A stretch of DNA of 64,000 bases, taken from Candidatus Vogelbacteria bacterium RIFOXYD1_FULL_44_32. GTDB lineage: Bacteria; Patescibacteriota; Minisyncoccia; Phycocordibacterales; XYD1-FULL-46-19. This document shows, one piece after another, positions 478-64,000 of this stretch. The stretch lies in assembly GCA_001823065.1 (NCBI GenBank), contig MHTJ01000003.1, positions 181,460-245,459 of the forward strand. Reading direction: 5' to 3'. The number at the start of each line of letters is the position of its first letter. The first letter of the stretch is position 1. The notes beneath the pieces were generated by a model. The model saw nothing but the letters and a program-made list of their open reading frames with translations. It was not told the DNA's origin and searched no databases. The position numbers were made by a program, and so were the translations under genes.

Positions 478-1101
478 TTGGCTATGCACAAATTACCACC
501 ATTGCCTTATGATTATTCGGATTTGTCTCCTTATATAGATGAAGAGACAATGCGTTTACATCATGACAAACATCACCAAGCTTATATTGATAAGCTAAAC
601 GGGGCGCTGGAAAAATATCCAGACTGGGCCGAAAAGGCCGTGGCGGATCTGCTTGGTGATTTAGAGGCTGTACCAGCTGAAATTAAAATGGCGGTGCGTA
701 ACCATGGGGGCGGGCATTTTAATCATTCCTTTTTCTGGGAGATAATGCGCCCCGGCCGAACTGACAATGTCCCGGAGGGTGAGCTTTTATTTAAGCTAAA
801 CGAAGTTTTCGGTGATTTACTTTCCTTTAAGGAAAAATTTACCACGGCGGCCTTGGGGCAGTTTGGCTCGGGTTGGGTCTGGTTGGTCCAAAATGGGCAA
901 GGTGAGCTGGCCATCAGCACGACCGCCAATCAGGACTCTCCACTGGAACTAGGGCAGAAGCCCATTATTGGGTGTGATGTCTGGGAGCATGCCTATTATT
1001 TGAAATACCAAAATCGGCGGGCTGAGTATGTCGATAATTTTTTTGCGGTTATAAATTGGAGTGTGGCCGATGCCAATTTTAAACATGCGAAACTGGGGTA
1101 A
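478..1101 (+). CDS. Fe/Mn superoxide dismutase
   Basis: Contains HHDKHHQAYIDKLN, the metal ligands and the DVWEHAYYLKYQNRRAEYV signature. 207 aa is typical. Confidence 0.9.
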   Translation: MAMHKLPPLPYDYSDLSPYIDEETMRLHHDKHHQAYIDKLNGALEKYPDWAEKAVADLLGDLEAVPAEIKMAVRNHGGGHFNHSFFWEIMRPGRTDNVPEGELLFKLNEVFGDLLSFKEKFTTAALGQFGSGWVWLVQNGQGELAISTTANQDSPLELGQKPIIGCDVWEHAYYLKYQNRRAEYVDNFFAVINWSVADANFKHAKLG

Positions 1102-1137: not shown

Positions 1138-1950
1138 ATGGATATTGAAGAACTAAACAAAAGTCAGATAATTTTACTCACTCTTTTGGTGAGCTTTATT
1201 ACTTCAATTGCCACTGGGATTGTGACCGTGACACTAATGGACCAAGCGCCAGAGGGAGTGACCCGCACTATTACGCAAGTGGTAGAACGAACGGTCGAAT
1301 CGGTCAAACCAGGAGATACTCAAGTCGCGACGGTGATAAAAGAGGTGCCAGTGATTGTGACTGAAGAAGAATTAGTTTTAAAAGCGATCAATATTGCCTC
1401 GCCCGCGGTTGCTACCCTTTCTACTTCTCCCCTTAAAAAATATGAAGGAGTGAGCCAAGTTGGGACCGCCTTTTTAATTGAGGGTAAAAATCGTTTTATC
1501 ACTAGCGGTCGGTTGGTCCTTCCTAAAGTTGTTTATCAAATTCAGCTAGAAAATGGCACTTCCGCTAAGGTGATGATGACCGCCAAAAGTCTCGATGGGC
1601 AAGTGGCTATACTTGATGTCATTGCTGAAGACAGTCTGGCTTTTACGACCGCGACTAAAGAGATTAAACATTTAGTTTTTTCGGATAGCGCAATCTCGAT
1701 TGGCCAATCAGTCATCGGTATTGGCGCCAGCGCTGATGTCAACCACAATGTGGCGATGGGGATTGTATCTAATTTGTCGGGCCAAGCTTCCAGTACCACG
1801 ACGATGATTGTCACCAATGCTTCGGCGGTTAATAATATTGGGGGGCCGTTGATTGATATCCGGGGGAAAATTATTGGTCTAAATGCTGGGGCGGGGGAAG
1901 CAATTAGTAAAAAAAGCATCTTGGCTTTGATTGACGAGCTAAATAAATAG
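1138..1950 (+). CDS. Membrane-anchored trypsin-like (HtrA/S1-like) domain protein, probably a catalytically inactive pseudo-protease
   Basis: N-terminal TM helix. The S1 fold motifs are recognisable (GTAFLIEGKNRFITSGRLV, NNIGGPLIDIRGKIIGLNAG), but the His position reads R (TSGRLV versus TNAHVV) and GNSGGP reads NNIGGP, so Ser is replaced by Ile. Confidence 0.5.
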   Translation: MDIEELNKSQIILLTLLVSFITSIATGIVTVTLMDQAPEGVTRTITQVVERTVESVKPGDTQVATVIKEVPVIVTEEELVLKAINIASPAVATLSTSPLKKYEGVSQVGTAFLIEGKNRFITSGRLVLPKVVYQIQLENGTSAKVMMTAKSLDGQVAILDVIAEDSLAFTTATKEIKHLVFSDSAISIGQSVIGIGASADVNHNVAMGIVSNLSGQASSTTTMIVTNASAVNNIGGPLIDIRGKIIGLNAGAGEAISKKSILALIDELNK

Positions 1951-4793: not shown

Positions 4794-4876
4794 GCGTCGG
4801 TGGTGGAGTGGTCAATCACAACAGACTGTAAATCTGTCGCCTTACGGCTACGCAGGTTCGAATCCTGCCCGGCGCA
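4794..4876 (+). tRNA. tRNA-Tyr (anticodon GUA), long variable arm
   Basis: Hand-folded. Acceptor GCGTCGG/CCGGCGC with discriminator A. Anticodon loop CUGUAAA. T-arm CAGGTTCGAATCCTG. 83 nt, no encoded CCA. Confidence 0.85.
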
Positions 4877-4903
4877 CAAAAAATCCCCGTTAGGGGATTT
4901 TGT

Positions 4904-5033
4904 GCGCCGGGAGCAAAGCACCTGCGTGCTTTGCGTCAGGATTCGAAAGACTTTTCGTTATCAAATATTTGCTAAGAATATTTGGTCGAAAAGTACTCGC
5001 CCCCGTAGGGGGAGAATCCTGCCCGGCGCACCA
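4904..5033 (+). ncRNA. tRNA-adjacent structured element E1 (candidate tRNA-mimic RNA ending in CCA)
   Basis: The 5' end GCGCCGG pairs with the 3' end CCGGCGC-A-CCA. The 3' terminal 17 nt copy the tRNA-Tyr 3' end. Internal 9-bp hairpin GCAAAGCAC-CTGC-GTGCTTTGC. Helix CTTTTCG/CGAAAAG. Conserved CGCCCCCGTAGGGGGAGA. It is homologous to E2 at 57844-57963, with compensatory changes in both helices. Confidence 0.5.
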
Positions 5034-23046: not shown

Positions 23047-23117
23047 TGCCGGATCGTCTAAAGGTAGGACATGAGCCTTTGAAGCTCAGTATCTTGGTTC
23101 GATTCCAAGTCCGGCAG
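23047..23117 (+). tRNA. tRNA-Gln (anticodon UUG)
   Basis: U1:A72 acceptor (TGCCGGA/TCCGGCA, discriminator G). Anticodon loop CUUUGAA. T-arm TTGGTTCGATTCCAA. Confidence 0.8.
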
Positions 23118-23140
23118 CTAGGAGTTTTTTGTAAAAAACG

Positions 23141-23262
23141 ACGAGACTGTCCGGCTTGGAATCGAACAGGAGTGGGGTCGGGAGAACATATGGTCTCCCG
23201 TGGAGGAAGGATTGGGAAAACCGAGGGTTTCCCAGGGGTGAGATATCCAAGTCCGGTAGCCA
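23141..23262 (+). ncRNA. Diverged tRNA-adjacent structured element E3 (same family as E1/E2), ending ...TCCAAGTCCGGTAG-CCA
   Basis: The 5' part GTCCGGCTTGGAATCGAAC is the reverse complement of the tRNA-Gln 3' end. The 3' part copies the tRNA-Gln 3' end plus CCA. Internal GTCGGGAG... and GGGAAACC/GGTTTCCC-AGGGG-GAGA-ATCC resemble the E1/E2 core. Confidence 0.3.
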
Positions 23263-23279
23263 ACTCGCGCTAGCACAAA

Positions 23280-57682: not shown

Positions 57683-57771
57683 TCAAATATTTGTTTGAGC
57701 GTCAACATATATGGGCTAGACTTGCCCCAACAGTTTTCTTACCAAATAGTTAAACTACTAAGTTGGTAATC

Positions 57772-57803
57772 AAAAAACACCGCCTAAGCCCGGTGTTTTT
57801 TGG
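57772..57803 (+). terminator. Rho-independent terminator
   Basis: AAAAAACACCGCC-taag-CCCGGTGTTTTTTGG. Confidence 0.8.
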
Positions 57804-57843: not shown

Positions 57844-57963
57844 TGGTGGACCCACGGGGAGTCTCCCCCTACGGGGGCGGGTACTTTTCCGTCTCATTTC
57901 ATTCGACAAGGAAAAGTCTTTCGACTTCCCGACGTGAGTGAAGCAGTTCACTCACTTGGGCCC
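57844..57963 (-). ncRNA. tRNA-adjacent structured element E2 (homologue of E1), ending ...CCCCGTGGGTCCA-CCA with a G3:U70 acceptor
   Basis: The reverse complement reads GGGCCCA-AGTGAGTGAA-CTGC-TTCACTCAC-GTCGGGAAGTCGAAAGACTTTTCC-...-GGAAAAGTACCCGCCCCCGTAGGGGGAGACTCCCCGTGGGTCCACCA. The ends are copied from, and complementary to, the adjacent tRNA-Ala(GGC). Confidence 0.5.
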
Positions 57964-58005
57964 ACCCTACAAAAATGGCTCACCGAAAGATCGGTTAGCT
58001 CATTT

Positions 58006-58076
58006 TTGTAAGTGTGGACCCACGGGGAGTCGAACCCCGGACTCGTCCATGCCATGGACGCGTGTTACCACTATAC
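58006..58076 (-). tRNA. tRNA-Ala (anticodon GGC), G3:U70 present
   Basis: The reverse complement reads GGGCCCATAGTATAGTGGTAACACGCGTCCATGGCATGGACGAGTCCGGGGTTCGACTCCCCGTGGGTCCA. Anticodon loop AUGGCAU. Confidence 0.8.
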
Positions 58077-58255
58077 TATGGGCCCTAAAACACCCCTGAT
58101 TTCATTGGGGTGTTCGGGCAAACATTTGGTTACAAATGTTTTAGCCCTAAAACTCCCAGATATACTAAACGCTGTTCGGGCGATCATCTGCAAGGGCAGA
58201 TGATTTAGCCTAAAACATCATTGTTTGAAAAAATAACACATTTCTGTTACATTTC
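58069..58255. repeat. Three tandem roughly 62-nt hairpin units beginning (T)TAGCC(C)TAAAAC, abutting the tRNA-Ala(GGC) 5' end
   Basis: Units at about 58071, 58132 and 58196. Each has the CTAAAAC junction (the first is the tRNA 5' end GGGCCC+TAAAAC). The first two carry GTTCGGGC plus a long hairpin (GGGCAAACATTTG-gtta-CAAATGTTTTAGCCC, and GGCGATCATCTGC-aagg-GCAGATGATTTAGCC). Confidence 0.45.
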
Positions 58256-58260
58256 AAAGC

Positions 58261-58476
58261 ATGTTTAAAGACTTTCTCATGCGTAAGATGCTCAAAAGCC
58301 AAGGGGTACCCGAGGCGCAGATAGACCAGGCTTTATTGATGATCAACAAAAACCCCGATTTATTTAAAAAAATTGCCGACGAAATTCAAATTAAAACTAG
58401 TGCCGGTGGAGACAAGATGGCGGTAACTATGGAGGTAATGAAGAAATACGAGAGTGAACTGAAAGCAATAAAATAA
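58261..58476 (+). CDS. Small hypothetical protein (71 aa)
   Basis: Intact ORF just upstream of ychF. Confidence 0.4.
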   Translation: MFKDFLMRKMLKSQGVPEAQIDQALLMINKNPDLFKKIADEIQIKTSAGGDKMAVTMEVMKKYESELKAIK

Positions 58477-58480
58477 TATT

Positions 58481-59584
58481 ATGGGCTTATCAATCGGCAT
58501 TGTGGGACTACCAAACGTGGGAAAATCCACGCTTTTTAATGCGCTGACTAAAAAAAGTGTGCCAGCCGAAAACTACCCTTTTTGTACTATCGATCCGTCG
58601 GTCGGCATTGTCCAAGTGCCAGACGAGCGACTCTGGAAATTGTCCGAGCTTTCTAAATCGGCCAAGACTATTCCGGCAGCGGTAGAATTTACCGATATCG
58701 CCGGCTTGGTGAAAGGGGCCTCGGAGGGTGAGGGGCTGGGCAACCAGTTTTTGTCGCATATTCGCGAAGTCGATGCAATTGCCCAAGTAGTGCGGGTGTT
58801 TCCCGCCCGAGGCGGGTCCGCCTCGGGCGGAGAGGATGTCATTCATATCTATGGCGATATTAATCCAATGCGTGACGTAGAAATAATAAATCTTGAACTT
58901 ATTCTCGCCGATATGCAGTCGGTAACCAAAAGACGCGCCAATATTTTGCGTGATGTAAAAAGGGGGGACAAAGCCGCGGCCATAGAAGATGGTATTTTAG
59001 CCAAGGTGGAAGTTGAACTGGAAGCGGGAAGACTAGCTTCTACTGTCGCCTTAGATGAAGCGGAAAAAGAAATTTTAAAAAGTATGCATTTACTTTCCGC
59101 GAAACCAATATTATATGTTTTAAACAAAAAAAGCGGAGCGAAGCTTGCCGACACTACCGAACTTATGAAATATATTACCGCTTCGGGAGCGCAATTTGTG
59201 GAAGTGGACGCTGGTATTGAAAACGAGTTGTCGGCCCTGTCCGATGAAGATAAAGGGGTATTTCGGGCAGAATATGACGCTAAAGACGATGGAGTCAATG
59301 ACCTAATCCGCCAAAGCTATAAGTTGCTGGGCCTGATGACCTATTTCACCACCGGCACCGACGAGACCAGGGGCTGGACCGTGAAAGTGGGGGCCACGGG
59401 GCCCGAGGCCGGCATGGCTATTCATACCGATTTTAAAGAAAAGTTTATTCGCGCGGAGGTGGTGGCCTATGACAAGCTAATCGAGGCTGGTTCCTACGCC
59501 ACCGCCCGCGAAAAAGGCTGGGTGCGCACCGAAGGAAAAGAGTATATAGTAAAGGATGGAGATGTAATAGAGTTTAAAATATAA
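58481..59584 (+). CDS. ychF: Ribosome-binding ATPase YchF
   Basis: GIVGLPNVGKSTLFNALT G1. TGS-like C-terminal domain YFTTGTDETRGWT...GDVIEFKI. 367 aa. Confidence 0.9.
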   Translation: MGLSIGIVGLPNVGKSTLFNALTKKSVPAENYPFCTIDPSVGIVQVPDERLWKLSELSKSAKTIPAAVEFTDIAGLVKGASEGEGLGNQFLSHIREVDAIAQVVRVFPARGGSASGGEDVIHIYGDINPMRDVEIINLELILADMQSVTKRRANILRDVKRGDKAAAIEDGILAKVEVELEAGRLASTVALDEAEKEILKSMHLLSAKPILYVLNKKSGAKLADTTELMKYITASGAQFVEVDAGIENELSALSDEDKGVFRAEYDAKDDGVNDLIRQSYKLLGLMTYFTTGTDETRGWTVKVGATGPEAGMAIHTDFKEKFIRAEVVAYDKLIEAGSYATAREKGWVRTEGKEYIVKDGDVIEFKI

Positions 59585-59590
59585 TTTAAC

Positions 59591-60181
59591 ATGTATAAAA
59601 ATAAAATACTGGTGATATTTTCTATAATAGTATTAATAATTGTTGTACTTGGTGGTTACCTTTATACGAGCACATTACAACAATTAGTCTTTGATAACCC
59701 AGAGAATATTACGGAAGTTAAGACAGAATTTTGGGGTGATAATTATTATGGGAAAAGTGAAACATTTATAAATCCTGAATGGAAAACCTATCAAAACGAT
59801 CAATATCACTTTAAATTTGACTACCCTATACTAGGTCAGCATAAAATTAAACCCACTCTTTCAGAGAACGACCTTAGGTTTGAGCTTATACCTTTTAATT
59901 CGTCTCTAAGAGTAAGTAAGGTGGGAAAAGTAGACATAGACGACTATGTTCGTTCTAATAGTTGGGACGAAACGAGCTTCAATAAAGTTACATTTAAAGG
60001 AATTGAAGCATATGAAGGTGTTGATGGTGGTATGGACAGCTCATATATTATTGTTTTTATAAAAGATGACTATTTATACAAATTTAGTTTTACTGGTATA
60101 GGAACAACGATTGAAGAGTTAAAATCTGAGCTTAACCCTGAGCACAAGCGAATATTATCAACGTTTGAGTTTATTAACTAA
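59591..60181 (+). CDS. Hypothetical anchored protein, AT-rich
   Basis: N-terminal TM. No family recognised. Confidence 0.45.
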   Translation: MYKNKILVIFSIIVLIIVVLGGYLYTSTLQQLVFDNPENITEVKTEFWGDNYYGKSETFINPEWKTYQNDQYHFKFDYPILGQHKIKPTLSENDLRFELIPFNSSLRVSKVGKVDIDDYVRSNSWDETSFNKVTFKGIEAYEGVDGGMDSSYIIVFIKDDYLYKFSFTGIGTTIEELKSELNPEHKRILSTFEFIN

Positions 60182-60719
60182 ATATCTTATGCAAACAAAA
60201 TCAATTTTGAAGTGGGTGTTGATCGGATCAATTGTGGTTGTTTTGAACCTGTTTTTCAATTTTGCGATTGATACTGTCTATAATGCGCCGGAGTACGACA
60301 AGTTTTGTGTGGTTAAACAGGTTACTATTCAGCCGGACACCGAAGCAAAATGTGTCGCCGAGGGTGGGGCGTGGACCGCTAATACGGAAAAGCCGGTAAA
60401 TGCCAGCACGCCGGTGATGAAGGGTTGGTGTGATACCAATTTTACCTGTGGTAAAGAGTTTAATGAGGCAAACAGTGTCTACAACCGCAATGTGTTTATT
60501 GCTTTGGTGGTGCTAGGGCTACTGTCATTAGGGGTTGGGCTGTTTGTCACTGCTACCGGCAGTGCGGTGTCACTCGGGCTTTCTCTAGGTGGTCTCTTGT
60601 CTTTCATTATTGCCTCGATCCGCTACTGGTCGGATATGGACGAATACTTGCGGGTAATAGTGCTGGGTATTGCTCTCGTGCTTTTGATTGGGGTGGGGAT
60701 TAAGAAGTTTAAAGAATAA
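60165..60719 (+). CDS. Hypothetical membrane protein (N- and C-terminal TM segments)
   Basis: Intact ORF, Cys-containing central region. Confidence 0.45.
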   Translation: MSLLTKYLMQTKSILKWVLIGSIVVVLNLFFNFAIDTVYNAPEYDKFCVVKQVTIQPDTEAKCVAEGGAWTANTEKPVNASTPVMKGWCDTNFTCGKEFNEANSVYNRNVFIALVVLGLLSLGVGLFVTATGSAVSLGLSLGGLLSFIIASIRYWSDMDEYLRVIVLGIALVLLIGVGIKKFKE

Positions 60720-60725
60720 AAATAA

Positions 60726-60762
60726 ATGCAAAACCGCCCGCACCGTAAGGTGCGGGCGGTTT
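60726..60762 (+). terminator. Rho-independent terminator
   Basis: AAAACCGCCCGCACC-gtaa-GGTGCGGGCGGTTTTGCTTTTT. Confidence 0.85.
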
Positions 60763-60808
60763 TGCTTTTTCAGACTAATGTTGTATAGTAAACGACATCA
60801 AATCTCCT

Positions 60809-63727
60809 ATGAAGTCCTACGATCATAAAAAAATCGAAAAGAAGTGGCAGAAGGATTGGGCTAAGTCTGGTTTGTACGAAACCAAAGATAATTCTAAAAA
60901 ACCAAAGTTTTATTGTTTAGACATGTTCCCTTACCCGTCGGGTGAAGGGCTCCATGTTGGTCACCCCAAGGGCTATATTGCCACCGATATTTATAGTCGG
61001 TATATGCGGATGAAGGGTTTTAATGTTTTACACCCGATGGGTTGGGACGCTTTTGGACTACCGGCCGAAAATTATGCCATCAAAAACAAAGTTCACCCGA
61101 AAATTTCGACCGCTAAAAATATCAAGCACTACAAACAGCAACTAGAAATGCTGGGTCTGTCTTACGACTGGACCAGGGAAATAGACACCACCGACCCTGC
61201 TTACTATCGGTGGACGCAGTGGATTTTCTTGCAGATGTTTAAGCAGGGTTTGGCCTATGAGTCCTATGAGCCGATCAACTGGTGCCCATCGTGCCAGACG
61301 GGCCTCGCCAACGAAGACCTAGAAGACGGCAAGTGCGAACGCTGTGGCTCGGAAATAGAGAAGAAACCTATGCGCCAATGGGTGCTAAAGATTACCGACT
61401 ACGCTGATCGACTTTTAAATGATTTAAGTACGACCGACTACGACCGACCAAAGATTATTGACAAAACAAACCCTCCTATCAAAGGATCGCCTTTTGTTGA
61501 AAGAAATGTTGCTCATGCTATTGTTTTTGATCCTAAAAATAAAAAATATCTCATTATTAGAAACAAAAAACACGGCTGGGACACGTTGGTGATTGGTGGT
61601 ATTGAAAAAGGAGAAACTGCTGAAGAAACCGCTCGGCGGGAAGTAAGGGAAGAAACTGGCTACACCGATCTTGAATTTAAAAAAATATTGGGGGGTGAAA
61701 CCGAAGCTCACTATTACGCTAAACACAAAGGTGAAAACCGGATTGCTTTTGCTACGGCTGTTTATTTTGAATTAAAAAGTAATAAACGGGTGCCGATCGC
61801 CGACGGTGAAGACGCGGCCGATGAAGTGCTGTGGATTGAGGAAAAAGATTTCGTGCCGGGGAAAATGATTAACGCTGAACTGCCGGTCTGGCTCGCGCGA
61901 CTCAAAAATCCAAAACTAGGCTGGCCTAAACCGCTGCTCGAGTGGCCCGAATCAATTAAAGAAGCCCAGCGCAATTGGATTGGCCGAAGTGAAGGTCTGC
62001 TTTTTACTGCCCCAGTTAAAGATACTGACATTAAAATCCAAACATTCAGTGCTCACTTTGAAGCATTTTATGCCGATACTTTTGTAGTTATCGCACCTGA
62101 CCATCCGTTGTTACCCCAACTGGTAGCCGGTACTGCAAATGAAAAAGAGGTTCTAAAATTTTCCCAAGATTTAGTTAAAAAAAGAATCAAGGAAGGTTTT
62201 AATGCCAACAAAGAGCCGGAGGGTATATTTACTGGTCGCTATATTGTGGACCCAATCGGTAACGGTGATCTACCAATTTGGGTGGCCAATTTTGCCATTG
62301 CTGACTATGGCACCGGCATAGTAAAGGCCTCTTGTCACGATGAACGCGATTTTGCTTTTGCTAAAAAATATAATATTAAAATGAAGCCAGTGTTGTTTCC
62401 GGCTGATCCAGCCGAGAAGGCGAAGGTGAAAAATCTGGAAGTTTGTTATTTTGATATGAAAAATGGTCTATTGGCCGAACCAGCCGAATTTGCGGGTAAA
62501 AAAGCGGGAGATATTAGAGCTGATATTGCCAATTTTGCGGTTAAAAAAGGTCTGGCCGTTAAAAAAGTGAGCTATAAACTGCGCGACTGGGTCTTCTCTC
62601 GCCAGCGCTATTGGGGTGAGCCTATCCCACTCATTCATTGCGAGAAATGCGGCGTGGTCGCGGTACCAGAAAAAGATTTGCCAGTGGAACTACCCAAAGT
62701 AAAAAGCTATGCACCGACCGGTACAGGGGAGTCGCCGCTAGCCGATATTAAAAGTTGGGTCAATACGAAGTGCCCCACCTGTAAAGGCCCAGCGAAGCGC
62801 GAAACCAACACTATGCCCCAATGGGCAGGCTCGTCTTGGTATTATTTGCGCTACATGGATCCTAAAAATAAGAAAGCTTTAGTGGATTCAACCAAAGAAA
62901 AATATTGGTCACCAGTTGACCTCTATGTCGGCGGGACCGAACACGCCACTCGTCACCTTATTTACGCCCGCTTTTGGCATAAGTTTTTAAATGATATTAA
63001 AGTGGTTTCCACCAATGAACCTTTTAAGCGCTTTGGCAAAAGTCTGGGCCTCGTTTTAGGTGAAGATGGCCGCAAAATGAGCAAGCGCTGGGGTAATGTC
63101 GTAAACCCCGACGAGGTGGTAGCGACCTACGGTGCCGACACGATGCGCTTGTACGAAATGTTTATGGGTCCGTTTGACCAAGAAATAGCGTGGAATACTC
63201 AAAGCATGATTGGCTCGCGGCGTTTTTTGGAGAAAGTTTGGAAACTGAGTGAAAAAGTAGGCAAGAAAACTACTCCAGAGATAGCGGTTGATTTGCATCG
63301 GACGGTCAAAAAAGTGGGCGAGGATATTGAAAGCTTTAATTTTAACACTGCTGTTTCCAGCTTGATGATTTTGGCTAATAGTCTAGAGAAATGTGAGACT
63401 ATTGCCCGAGCCGATTTTGAGGCTTTAATTAAGCTTTTAGCCCCTTTTTCACCCCATATAGCCGAGGAATTGTGGTCTGGTAAAGGTTCGGTGCATAACG
63501 CGCCTTGGCCAATATATGACGAGGCCAAAACAATATCAGCCATGGTCACGATTATTATTCAAGTGAATGGCAAAGTGAGGGGGAATATTAATGTCAAAAT
63601 GGGTACAGTTGAGACCACAGTGGTAGAAGAAGCGATGTCTTGTGCTAGTGTCGCCATGCATATTTCTGGTAAGGAAATAAAAAAGACTATCTTTATCCCC
63701 AATAAGTTGGTTAATTTTGTGGTGTAA
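60809..63727 (+). CDS. leuS: Leucyl-tRNA synthetase carrying an inserted Nudix hydrolase domain (roughly aa 207-377; nt 61427-61940)
   Basis: HIGH motif (HVGHP). KMSKS motif (KMSKRWGN). CP1 editing motifs (TGIVKASCHDERD). Anticodon-binding and C-terminal domains present. Between LLNDL and EWPESIKEAQRNWIGRSEG, which are contiguous in E. coli LeuRS, lies a full Nudix fold with the box GGIEKGETAEETARREVREETGY. Confidence 0.9.
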   Translation: MKSYDHKKIEKKWQKDWAKSGLYETKDNSKKPKFYCLDMFPYPSGEGLHVGHPKGYIATDIYSRYMRMKGFNVLHPMGWDAFGLPAENYAIKNKVHPKISTAKNIKHYKQQLEMLGLSYDWTREIDTTDPAYYRWTQWIFLQMFKQGLAYESYEPINWCPSCQTGLANEDLEDGKCERCGSEIEKKPMRQWVLKITDYADRLLNDLSTTDYDRPKIIDKTNPPIKGSPFVERNVAHAIVFDPKNKKYLIIRNKKHGWDTLVIGGIEKGETAEETARREVREETGYTDLEFKKILGGETEAHYYAKHKGENRIAFATAVYFELKSNKRVPIADGEDAADEVLWIEEKDFVPGKMINAELPVWLARLKNPKLGWPKPLLEWPESIKEAQRNWIGRSEGLLFTAPVKDTDIKIQTFSAHFEAFYADTFVVIAPDHPLLPQLVAGTANEKEVLKFSQDLVKKRIKEGFNANKEPEGIFTGRYIVDPIGNGDLPIWVANFAIADYGTGIVKASCHDERDFAFAKKYNIKMKPVLFPADPAEKAKVKNLEVCYFDMKNGLLAEPAEFAGKKAGDIRADIANFAVKKGLAVKKVSYKLRDWVFSRQRYWGEPIPLIHCEKCGVVAVPEKDLPVELPKVKSYAPTGTGESPLADIKSWVNTKCPTCKGPAKRETNTMPQWAGSSWYYLRYMDPKNKKALVDSTKEKYWSPVDLYVGGTEHATRHLIYARFWHKFLNDIKVVSTNEPFKRFGKSLGLVLGEDGRKMSKRWGNVVNPDEVVATYGADTMRLYEMFMGPFDQEIAWNTQSMIGSRRFLEKVWKLSEKVGKKTTPEIAVDLHRTVKKVGEDIESFNFNTAVSSLMILANSLEKCETIARADFEALIKLLAPFSPHIAEELWSGKGSVHNAPWPIYDEAKTISAMVTIIIQVNGKVRGNINVKMGTVETTVVEEAMSCASVAMHISGKEIKKTIFIPNKLVNFVV

Positions 63728-63730
63728 TGT

Positions 63731-63758
63731 TTGCATATTGACATAAATTAGATATAAT
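63731..63758 (+). promoter_or_regulatory. Sigma-70-like promoter (TTGCAT-16 nt-TATAAT)
   Basis: -35 TTGCAT at 63731-63736. -10 TATAAT at 63753-63758, about 25 nt upstream of the next ATG. Confidence 0.45.
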
Positions 63759-63783
63759 GGTAGTAATTAATAAACAAAATTTT

Positions 63784-63999
63784 ATGAAAAAAACCCAGGA
63801 AGTAATTACTTTTAAACCAAAAGATATCACTAAGCGTCTTTTGACGGTTCTGTCCGAACGGGCCCAGGATGTTATCACCAAACGATACGGCTTGGGTAAA
63901 AACTCGACCTGCCTTACCTTGGAAGCGATTGGTTCCGAATATGGTATTACCCGTGAGCGGGTTCGTCAGATTGAAAACTTTTCTATCAATGCCATCAAG
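63784..63999 (+). CDS. Protein beginning with a sigma-70 region-4-like HTH (partial; continues past the window end)
   Basis: LSERAQDVITKRYGLGKNSTCLTLEAIGSEYGITRERVRQIE closely matches sigma-70 region 4.2 (RFGL...TLEEVG..FGVTRERIRQIE). Confidence 0.45.
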   Translation, partial: MKKTQEVITFKPKDITKRLLTVLSERAQDVITKRYGLGKNSTCLTLEAIGSEYGITRERVRQIENFSINAIK

Positions 64000-64000
64000 A

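Follow-up and report, generated by a model that had tools for sequence, protein, structure and literature searches.

We describe a family of short structured elements, here called E, that lie directly behind tRNA genes in Patescibacteria and were recognized in a 64,000-nucleotide stretch of the Candidatus Vogelbacteria bacterium RIFOXYD1_FULL_44_32 genome (GenBank assembly GCA_001823065.1, contig MHTJ01000003.1, positions 181,460 to 245,459; hereafter the window). Most attention is given to E2, the copy that follows tRNA-Ala(GGC) on the minus strand (57844..57966). We favour the reading that E is an integrative element which carries a structure, is non-autonomous and is directed to tRNA 3′ ends, where site-specific recombination would take place within X, a segment of the tRNA gene end that is found on both sides of the element. 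We give this reading about even odds, because the searches turned up no enzyme for it, the retargeting of the arms to more than 30 tRNAs is hard to account for and the folding signals are equally RNA-like. The sequences gathered indicate that E is a Patescibacteria-wide, non-coding family of more than 110 elements, each about 120-170 nt long, distributed over genomes and metagenomes. The copies of tRNA 3′ ends that adjoin tRNA genes in these genomes are real features rather than assembly errors.

The anatomy of E2 provides the starting point for the argument (all coordinates in this paragraph are on the minus strand). The final 18 nt of E2 are an exact copy of the 3′ end of tRNA-Ala(GGC) (58031..58014), giving two matches in the window where 0.08 are expected. 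The left copy of this repeat, X (GACTCCCCGTGGGTCCAC, 18 nt; 58014..58031), lies inside the functional tRNA and extends from T-loop position 57 to C74, and the right copy (57846..57863) is followed by CA, so that CCA is encoded at 57846..57844. A long imperfect hairpin, P0 (57968..58010), separates the tRNA from E2, and P0 together with E2 forms a 168-nt unit bounded by the exact 18-nt direct repeat X. The complement of X is present in the 5′ part of E2, where it is split in two. The anti-acceptor arm (GGTGGGCCCA; 57957..57966) is antisense to the acceptor 3′ strand of the tRNA plus ACC, and the anti-T arm (CGGGAAGTC; 57923..57931) pairs with the T-loop-3′/T-stem-3′ part of X to give helix P3. 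Folding and covariation place between the two arms a hairpin, P2 ('hairpin A'; 57934..57955), with a covarying 9-bp stem and the conserved loop CUGC. The same two lines of evidence define a conserved core (57864..57922), which consists of GAAAG, P4 (ACUUUUCC/GGAAAAGU(A)C, with a variable tip), CCG, P5 (CCCCC-GUA-GGGGG) and a final A. E2 was not called as a tRNA, and there is no open reading frame (ORF) in its approximately 120 nt.

A stable structure predicted at this junction also involves the tRNA. X, P0 and the anti-acceptor arm of E2 can form one continuous hairpin of about 30 bp (-43.6 kcal/mol, z -7.75), and the corresponding hairpin of the tRNA 3′ strand, P0 and arm at E1, the second copy in the window, has a value of -36 kcal/mol. 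The cloverleaf, at -32.5 kcal/mol, is less stable than either of these X-P0-X′ hairpins (-36 for E1, -44 for E2). As judged from the aligned junctions, the working tRNA is completed by the left copy of X, and the right copy is the displaced native end of the gene, which has retained its CCA.

Evidence of insertion comes from a related locus, L195, which encodes a YchF protein 88% identical to that of the window and has the same flanking genes. Here an identical tRNA-Ala(GGC) is followed directly by CAAACAGATT, and both P0 and E2 are missing. The junction ...GGGTCCAC|CAAACA is shared by this empty site and the right junction in the window. Because the same CAAACA follows the L195 tRNA and the right repeat of E2, P0 plus E2 is a 168-nt unit that is present in one lineage and absent from the other. 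The metagenome-assembled genome (MAG) that is empty at tRNA-Ala does carry the element behind two other tRNAs, tRNA-Tyr and tRNA-Ile (L027 and L058). In a more distant syntenic locus, L190, the tRNA-Ala is followed by an element whose right repeat has partly decayed. Orthologous pairs of empty and filled sites were found in at least two further cases, at tRNA-Pro (L164 versus L125) and tRNA-Ser(act) (L093 versus L158). Tandem arrays occur in L075, L089, L131, L151, L164 and L179, and one hybrid copy is explained by recombination between two elements. Measured against known tRNA-integrating elements, E has the flanking repeat taken from the 3′ segment of the tRNA, the restored tRNA and the empty site in relatives; an encoded integrase is absent from the 150-170-nt element, which has no ORF. 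Two loci carry small cargo. In L108, a 1-kb segment with an NYN-domain gene lies between two tRNA 3′-end repeats and is followed by an E element, and in L149, a 203-aa ORF with no Pfam match lies between two E copies.

We also considered that the repeat might be a retro-copied end of a mature tRNA, given that E1, E2 and a further candidate, E3, end in CCA and their tRNAs do not. This explanation was rejected. Many of the repeats continue beyond the tRNA into the genomic trailer, the CCA proves from the empty site in L195 to be simply the native gene end, and an encoded CCA is equally rare among tRNAs with E (13%) and without E (16%). More generally, CCA is encoded in only about 15% of tRNA genes across the related loci. 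In the window it is encoded by two of the seven tRNA genes, tRNA-Trp and tRNA-Ala(TGC), and the other five have C followed by bases other than CA.

The extent of the family was established by pattern searches, and all family statistics given here rest on loci ascertained in this manner; taxonomy is known for the genome matches only. A scan of one genome per species with an 18-mer of hairpin P5 as the query yielded 68 matches. Eleven of them are true relatives, in all of which the GAAAAGUACC block precedes the match, and those of the 11 genome loci that are classified all belong to Patescibacteria MAGs (Vogelbacteria, 'Saccharibacteria'-labelled or 'Patescibacteria group'). The 18-mer CGCCCCCGTAGGGGGAGA was rejected as a family marker, since the remaining 57 of the 68 matches come from Proteobacteria and further non-Patescibacteria and represent a GC-rich repeat that is unrelated to E. 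This palindromic repeat (..CCCTCGCCCCCGTAGGGGGAGAGGGYTAGGGWGAGGGGG..) is found in L013, L016, L023, L030, L032, L040 and other loci (Micropepsaceae MAG SMAG_U11826 and other Proteobacteria), with at least 15 copies in one MAG. A metagenome scan in which P5 was left free in the pattern returned at least 118 loci, about 110 of them genuine. One of the labels also deserves comment. The MAG SRP286056_co2_287 (L194, L011, L029 and L063) carries a Saccharibacteria label, which looks doubtful; its YchF is 89% identical to that of the Vogelbacteria window, and the locus is syntenic.

Most members of the family are associated with tRNA genes. For 95 of the 134 cores in the pattern set, a same-strand tRNA lies less than 400 nt upstream (median 76 nt), with more than 30 anticodons represented, and 115 of the 139 testable nhmmer hits (about 83%) have one within 350 nt upstream. 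The sequence after the core is a direct repeat of the tRNA that extends from just after the GGTTC of the T-loop to the gene end plus 0-8 nt, and is mostly 14-26 nt long. The order of parts is P0, then arms antisense to X that are split by the conserved P2, then the core (a three-way junction of P4 and P5) and finally the copy of X. Because P0 includes a recurring type with a CGAACGAAGUGAG loop, we count it as a part of the element. A covariance model (R1), built from 86 members, gives 122.3 bits for E2, recovers additional copies of greater divergence that follow other tRNAs of the related loci, and has no match in the non-Patescibacteria loci. A different module, which we call 'core-2' (..GAAAAGGUGUACUGA-hairpin-GAAAWRYGUACUCRYGG), is located directly before tRNA 3′-end copies in L158, L149, L150, L185, L087, L080 and L116. 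In L158 it replaces the usual core (core-1), with arms of the same kind and P2 retained around it, which suggests that interchangeable cores can be carried on a common scaffold.

The family is apparently undescribed so far. No prior description of E was found in the literature searched, the coverage of which was incomplete. With Rfam 15, only tRNAs pass the gathering score in the window and in six other E-bearing loci, and relaxed searches yielded nothing over E.

Covariation supports the proposed fold. In the alignment of the 86 members, 95.4% of cells are standard pairs, compared with 75.5% after shuffling and at most 50% when the pairing partners are slid out of register. Double changes occur in 451 cells versus 138 in shuffles, compensatory changes are seen at 19 of the 25 pairs, and covariation is strong in four helices. 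Six invariant pairs of P4 were imposed by the search pattern and hence are uninformative. However, the R84-Y136 pair beside them was not imposed, and it occurs as A-U in 59 sequences, G-C in 26 and G-U in one, with no broken example. P3 is nearly always intact (610 of 689 pairs are Watson-Crick). In helices that are unconstrained by the tRNA copy, the ratio of internal G.U pairs to A.C mismatches is 31:4, so the folding strand is the tRNA-sense strand; tRNAs from the same loci, used as a control, give 184:7. The models built on these data indicate that, on this strand, the arms paired with X reproduce the acceptor/T helix of the tRNA as a stem capped by the core. For the anti-acceptor arm, pairing at all seven of its seven positions was seen in 59% of copies with the upstream tRNA end (3′ strand, discriminator and one to three trailer bases), but in 37% with the downstream copy and in 6% in swapped controls; six or more of the seven positions pair with the upstream end in 81%. 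A kissing interaction between the loops of P2 (CUGC) and P5 (GUAG/GCAG) was also considered and is unsupported: the loops are complementary, yet variants of the former (CUUC) are uncompensated.

The second family member in the window, E1 (4878..5033, plus strand), was found by BLAST of the E2 region against the window and scores 115.6 bits with R1. It follows tRNA-Tyr(GTA) (4794-4877) and is composed of P0 (4878-4901), the arms and core (4902-5013) and a right 18-nt repeat (5014-5031) that equals tRNA positions 4860-4877, with CCA encoded at 5031-5033. Its conserved blocks are those of E2 (UCGAAAGACUUUUC ... GAAAAGUACYCGCCCCCGUAGGGGGAGA), and its ends instead match tRNA-Tyr. E1 and E2 have a common fold, in which a long stem made of acceptor-like P1 and T-like P3 bears the side hairpin P2 and is capped by the three-way junction of P4 and P5 (fold z-scores of -7.0 for E1 and -5.5 for E2). 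The element is present at only two of the seven tRNAs in the window, and the covariance model finds no third copy there. A third candidate, 'E3' (23119-23268, plus strand), follows tRNA-Gln(TTG) (23047-23118). It comprises a short hairpin, a contiguous antisense copy of about 22 nt of the tRNA 3′ end, a different core of about 75 nt and a tRNA-end copy (TCCAAGTCCGGTAGCCA) that has three mismatches to the 17-mer tested. We rejected E3 as a family member on the grounds that it has no match to the covariance model and its fold (z -0.35) is not above shuffles. It has the layout of E, with a core that is different or decayed. The genes that come after E3 look accessory: an unannotated Cys-rich ORF of 116 aa, an APH-family kinase and GrpB.

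Searches for a gene that might move E returned nothing that travels with it. Clustering of ORFs within 4 kb of the cores gave housekeeping genes only, with no recurrent protein gene beside E, and no tyrosine-recombinase motif was found in the 64-kb window. A XerC/D-like gene lies near E in only three loci, where it reflects ordinary housekeeping synteny. A gene resembling CCA-adding enzymes (tRNA nucleotidyltransferase, as read from the start of the product and without a domain search) is present within a few hundred bases of E in seven metagenome loci (e.g. L154), which probably reflects synteny with the neighbouring tRNA. Three patterns run against the 2.9 million viral contigs of IMG/VR retrieved no E copy, the four viral matches from one of them being chance hits in coding sequence, and blastn against phage and plasmid collections likewise gave no match. 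The possibility that E is a phage attachment site (attP) was rejected given this absence of copies among viral contigs, phages and plasmids.

If E is indeed integrative, we picture the following sequence of events. Integration would occur by site-specific recombination within X, with a recombinase supplied in trans. The order after integration, X - P0 - X′ - core - X, would be the product of a folded single strand that recombines via a stem (X′:X) mimicking the duplex target, in which the conserved core and the P2 loop might serve as the handle for the recombinase and the stem might specify the target. The free form would be a self-complementary dumbbell of about 150-170 nt (P0 - X:X′ - core), and the element could be lost again by recombination between the two copies of X. 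We infer that the active nucleic acid is either single-stranded DNA or RNA. The strand-specific stem is the X of the tRNA gene paired with its complement, and the same signals are expected from RNA folding. A more ambitious form of this proposal, which we regard as a possibility well short of probable, is that E is a self-targeting mobile module, in which a stem that literally copies the target duplex is joined to a conserved three-way junction that recruits a protein; the choice of target would then be encoded by base pairing and be in effect programmable. It is equally tentative that one such core could colonise any tRNA 3′ end without a recombinase of its own, and we see a real chance, of about the same size, that E is mechanistically new.

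Several considerations weigh against the integrative reading. A recombinase was neither identified nor linked to E by the motif scan of the window or in the 4-kb neighbourhoods, and the action of one enzyme on more than 30 target sequences is plausible only if the conserved core or the T-loop is recognized. There is no known mechanism that would rewrite both the repeat and the split antisense arms when a new tRNA is colonised. The full acceptor-mimic helix (P1, formed with the downstream copy) is intact in just 35-37% of copies. E1 and E2 differ at every unconstrained position and so must be old copies, and the same tRNA (tRNA-Tyr, for example) is occupied in many genomes; such old copies and recurrent occupancy would also fit a vertically inherited functional RNA. 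Likewise, an excess of G.U pairs and the conservation of nucleotides at the junction are well-known marks of an RNA. E was not seen in a free form, whether circular or single-stranded, among the assembled sequences, and the empty sites could be explained purely by deletion between repeats instead of non-integration.

These points lead naturally to the alternative that E is a small RNA or cis-regulatory RNA that is useful to its host and is transcribed with the tRNA or by read-through, an explanation that we consider possible and to which we would assign a minority share of our belief. The arms might toggle between the tRNA 3′ end and the downstream copy (X-X′-X) in the manner of an attenuator, with the junction binding a protein or ligand to affect tRNA maturation or stability, a scheme we hold just as tentatively. 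A variant of comparable, limited probability treats the element as a minihelix mimic that tRNA enzymes such as alanyl-tRNA synthetase (AlaRS), RNase P or the CCA-adding enzyme would act on or be decoyed by. As a corollary, to which we give no greater weight, the direct repeats would be kept identical by selection and gene conversion, and the empty sites would be deletions. An X-X′-X switch gating maturation of the upstream tRNA would be as novel as the self-targeting module. The regulatory explanation accounts well for the tRNA-sense polarity of the fold (G.U to A.C of 31:4), for the strong covariation and conserved junction nucleotides, and for the fixed orientation and distance relative to the tRNA. 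It is also favoured by the anti-acceptor arm, which tracks the upstream tRNA end, including one to three trailer bases, better than the downstream copy (59% versus 37%), and by an X-P0-X′ hairpin (-43.6 kcal/mol) that can out-compete the cloverleaf (-32.5 kcal/mol). E1 and E2 as old paralogs conserved in their constrained parts only, the lack of a linked mobility gene, and a strong terminator-like hairpin placed after E2 and not after the tRNA all agree with it. However, P0 resembles an intrinsic terminator in many copies and precedes E, and the space is too short to hold a separate promoter. Moreover, a stable hairpin that sequesters the acceptor strand would be harmful to the tRNA if routinely transcribed. 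A regulatory role also sits poorly with occupancy of a minority of tRNAs without preference for particular ones, and with clean presence or absence among close relatives and even within one genome. Finally, tandem and cargo arrays, and repeats that reach into trailer DNA, are hallmarks of DNA insertion.

Two further explanations treat E as a remnant, and both are poor fits because of the covariation and the shared core. According to one, which we consider unlikely, the copies are inert scars, namely the two att-proximal arms of larger integrase-bearing islands or prophages that once occupied tRNA T-loops and have lost their interiors. The tRNA 3′-segment repeats, tandem accretion and small cargo islands do match classical tRNA-integrating elements (bioRxiv 10.1101/2020.12.28.424599), yet the same architecture and size of about 120 nt recur in more than 110 copies, and neither compensatory changes in four helices nor a strand bias would be expected of decaying scars. 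In addition, no full-length parent bearing the motif was found in the 2.9 million viral contigs, in the phage and plasmid collections or beside any copy. According to the other, which strikes us as very unlikely, E is a degenerate, immobile tandem duplicate of the tRNA, maintained by concerted evolution, in which the D and anticodon arms have collapsed to one hairpin and the T-loop has received an insert. This would explain why the 5′ arm of E2 equals the tRNA 5′ acceptor strand (GGGCCCA) and why a T-stem 5′ strand and UUCGA-like bases precede the core, and tandem tRNA-Ala genes do exist in relatives. More than 30 unrelated tRNAs, however, are followed by one and the same P2 loop and core, which independent decay cannot yield. 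Similarly, the arms cover discriminator and trailer bases that a tRNA 5′ strand does not contain, and near-identical cores stand behind different tRNAs in one genome (L125).

The 3′ parts of tRNA genes are established targets for integrative islands and prophages, including P4-like and other tyrosine-recombinase elements. Williams reportedly defined in 2002 a T-loop sublocation class of tRNA integration. The tycheposons of Prochlorococcus are also tRNA-integrating elements (bioRxiv 10.1101/2020.12.28.424599). E is like these systems in that its flanking repeat is the tRNA 3′ segment from the T-loop onwards and its left copy restores the tRNA, and in showing tandem pile-up, presence or absence among relatives and small cargo genes in arrays. 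Unlike them, it measures about 150-170 nt, carries no integrase or other gene, and combines repeat-antisense arms with a covarying three-way junction and one core at more than 30 tRNAs. A different comparison is offered by folded single-strand recombination sites, of which the CTX-phage attP(+), used by XerCD, and the integron attC sites, used by IntI, are examples; the CTX phage needs no element-encoded recombinase, and integrons build arrays of units. E would resemble both in having a strand-specific stem of two inverted copies that mimics a duplex target and is interrupted by extrahelical material, and in its post-integration order of X - rest - X′ - spacer - X. It differs in that it targets a tRNA gene end rather than dif or attI, in that the spacer is a highly conserved structured core, and in that the whole element is about the size of a recombination site.

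Other relationships are more distant. E shares with miniature inverted-repeat transposable elements (MITEs), repetitive extragenic palindromic (REP) and bacterial interspersed mosaic (BIME) elements, Rickettsia palindromic elements (RPE) and Correia elements the properties of being short, non-coding, multi-copy, hairpin-forming and flanked by a duplication. In contrast to these, its terminal pairing arms are target-specific, and it inserts solely behind tRNA genes, always with the same orientation. A parent insertion sequence, as expected of a MITE, was found neither in the 4-kb neighbourhoods nor in the viral, phage and plasmid collections, and the duplication of about 18 nt has a variable right edge rather than a fixed transposase stagger. 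Because the arms change with the tRNA target, E is not a strict MITE. Among tRNA-like RNAs (the tRNA-like domain of transfer-messenger RNA (tmRNA), mascRNA and viral tRNA-like structures), there is a parallel in the end-to-end stacking of acceptor- and T-stem-like helices, E1 and E2 end in an encoded ACCA, and E2 keeps G3:U70. However, E has no T-loop or D-loop analogue and no tag reading frame, and its acceptor helix is intact in about one third of members. A tmRNA or two-piece tmRNA was rejected, as ARAGORN reports none and the tmRNA_permuted model reaches 20.1 bits against a threshold of 47, over the tRNA 3′ end and P0 and not over the E2 core. Group I introns in Patescibacteria tRNA genes interrupt the gene in the anticodon loop (35/36), are self-splicing and mostly lack homing endonucleases (PMC13011429). 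Like these, E is a structured, non-coding, tRNA-associated insertion in the same phylum; unlike them, it follows an intact tRNA, is far smaller and is bounded by direct repeats. We rejected a group I intron or its remnant on account of the small size of E and of the 35/36 position at which the tRNA introns of Patescibacteria have been published (PMC13011429).

It seems appropriate to ask why such a small element should matter. Patescibacteria have very small genomes with few recognized mobile elements, yet one non-coding family is found at many of their tRNA gene ends. If mobile, E would be the smallest kind of tRNA-targeting integrative element yet seen, carrying a folded copy of its own target, and the notion that site choice can be encoded by nucleic-acid structure instead of a dedicated integrase would become testable. 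It would also provide a handle on genome plasticity, because recombination between copies deletes DNA (L131 and L151). If instead E is an RNA that acts on the neighbouring tRNA, it would represent a new class of tRNA-linked regulator. In either case, its strong covariation makes the family a well-supported candidate for a new Rfam-type entry. There is a practical aspect as well, since copies of tRNA 3′ ends can break assemblies and confuse the annotation of tRNAs and att sites. One Logan contig (SRR4388699_31142, locus L007, equal to window positions 58039-64000) ends within the tRNA-Ala gene beside the repeated and palindromic region, and tRNA-end elements may fragment short-read assemblies. 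The region itself is 100% identical across three independent assemblies (the 495-kb ENA scaffold, a JGI contig and a Logan contig), and an artefact of assembly is hence excluded.

On the minus strand, the complete locus comprises a promoter-like site, two hairpin units that we call A and B, the leader GTTTTA (58091..58086), tRNA-Ala(GGC), P0, E2 and a terminator-like hairpin. This agrees, on the evidence of sequence and ARAGORN, with the original prediction, which was made from sequence alone and gave the order of repeats, tRNA-Ala(GGC), hairpin and E2. The tRNA gene (58014..58085, minus strand; anticodon GGC) was called by ARAGORN and scores 55.9 bits with the Rfam tRNA model (RF00005; threshold 29). 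It has G3:U70 and encodes no CCA, the gene being followed 3′ by C and then ACT. The promoter-like site of its transcript (58230..58257, minus strand; TTGAAA-16-TATTTT with a TG extension) is a match to consensus only, and equivalents (TGnTATTTT/TGcTATATT) lie upstream of the units or the tRNA in the relatives L194, L195 and L190. The bidirectional terminator-like hairpin (AAAAAACACCG-GGCTTAG-GCGGTGTTTTTT; about 57771..57801) was read from the sequence and is unlisted by the consensus scan; it would close both the tRNA/E2 unit and a convergent Transgly_assoc gene. A small ORF and ychF diverge from the tRNA unit on the plus strand from 58261, and the encoded YchF shows 100% identity to the protein of Candidatus Vogelbacteria bacterium RIFOXYD1_FULL_44_32. 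The original prediction had also called this tRNA a hotspot, on the strength of the repeats together with E2. That description fits, given that relatives vary in unit A, unit B, two types of tRNA-Ala(GGC) gene, D-loop hairpin insertions and the presence or absence of E2; however, the prediction had treated E2 as a side remark and overlooked its terminal copy of the tRNA 3′ end.

Its emphasis was placed instead on the array upstream of the tRNA, which was described as three hairpin units. The repeat start GTTTTAGG(G)C is indeed found three times, with spacings of 63 and 62 nt, but there are only two full units, and the third copy is the tRNA junction, composed of the leader plus the first four bases of the tRNA. 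Folding and alignment define unit A (63 nt; 58154..58216, minus strand) as GTTTTAGGC, TAA, a ATCATCTGC/GCAGATGAT hairpin and CGCCCGAACA with a 19-nt tail, and unit B (62 nt; 58092..58153, minus strand) as GTTTTAGGGC, TAA, a AACATTTG/CAAATGTT hairpin and GCCCGAACA with a small CCCC..GGGG hairpin. Each forms a long hairpin, UGUUUUA-GGGC-UAA-[9 bp]-loop-[9 bp]-GCCC-GAACA, whose conserved ends are mutually complementary. GCCCGAACA (plus strand TGTTCGGGC) has exactly two occurrences in the window, both in these units, and the pattern TTTAGGSC-N15-40-GCCCGAAC has one match against none expected. The shared tRNA 5′ junction and the GTTCGGGC-plus-hairpin units proposed earlier are therefore real. The two units are identical at 42 of 65 positions (65%), and their 9-bp stems differ by two compensatory double changes that keep the pairing. 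The array is missing from the output of Tandem Repeats Finder, the divergence between its units being too great.

Conservation in relatives was also checked, and orthologs occupy the same locus: that of unit A in L195 has an unchanged stem and a different loop, and that of unit B in L194 is 57/62 identical. The more distant L190 lacks both units and has a leader of about 80 nt. The rest of the 64-kb window has no further unit copy, nor do the 1.37 Mb of related loci, the orthologous locus excepted. The description that suits the units best is a tandem duplication, specific to this lineage, in which the duplicated part of the leader contained the RNase P junction (GTTTTA|GGGC). The earlier suggestion of serial duplication of the tRNA 5′ junction fits, with A and B as diverged paralogs. 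A dispersed REP- or MITE-like family or a CRISPR-like array, in contrast, seems to us extremely improbable. Palindromic units of about 62 nt with conserved ends, and a GTTTTAG start that superficially resembles some CRISPR repeats, might invite such a classification, and a REP-like family had in fact been proposed. Nonetheless, there are merely two units and a tRNA junction, with zero other copies in the sequence searched and orthologous conservation at one locus. As for CRISPR, only a 9-10-nt motif is common to these 65%-identical units, no CRISPR repeat family was matched at threshold, and no cas genes lie nearby: the ORFs within about 3 kb encode an ABC transporter, a sigma factor, YchF and leucyl-tRNA synthetase, with the domain scan covering the small ORF only.

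The array had further been offered as a leader of the small ORF/ychF operon, which is unlikely, as it lies upstream of the predicted promoter of that operon and downstream of the minus-strand promoter-like site. Because they are downstream of the conserved extended -10-like TGnTATTTT and upstream of the tRNA, the units belong to the tRNA 5′ leader, where they may act as processing or stability hairpins. They are also upstream of the plus-strand promoter-like site predicted for the small ORF. Their layout of Y - hairpin - Y′ - tail - Y echoes that of E at a small scale, a resemblance that may or may not be meaningful.

Two additional observations concern this neighbourhood. In L195 (about 1790-1900, minus strand) and L197 (about 1010-1100, minus strand), a 'type 2' tRNA-Ala(GGC) gene carries a GC-rich palindrome of about 36 nt (CCCGCCCG(C)AAC...GGGCGG) in the D-loop, and this insert has the 9-mer CGCCCGAAC in common with upstream unit A. 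The palindrome could be a further small hairpin insertion family targeting tRNA-Ala genes, or an unusual intron. Lastly, in the 972-aa leucyl-tRNA synthetase encoded in the window (60809-63727, plus strand), precomputed Pfam annotation places a NUDIX-domain match between the catalytic-domain matches, which suggests that a NUDIX domain has been inserted in this enzyme.

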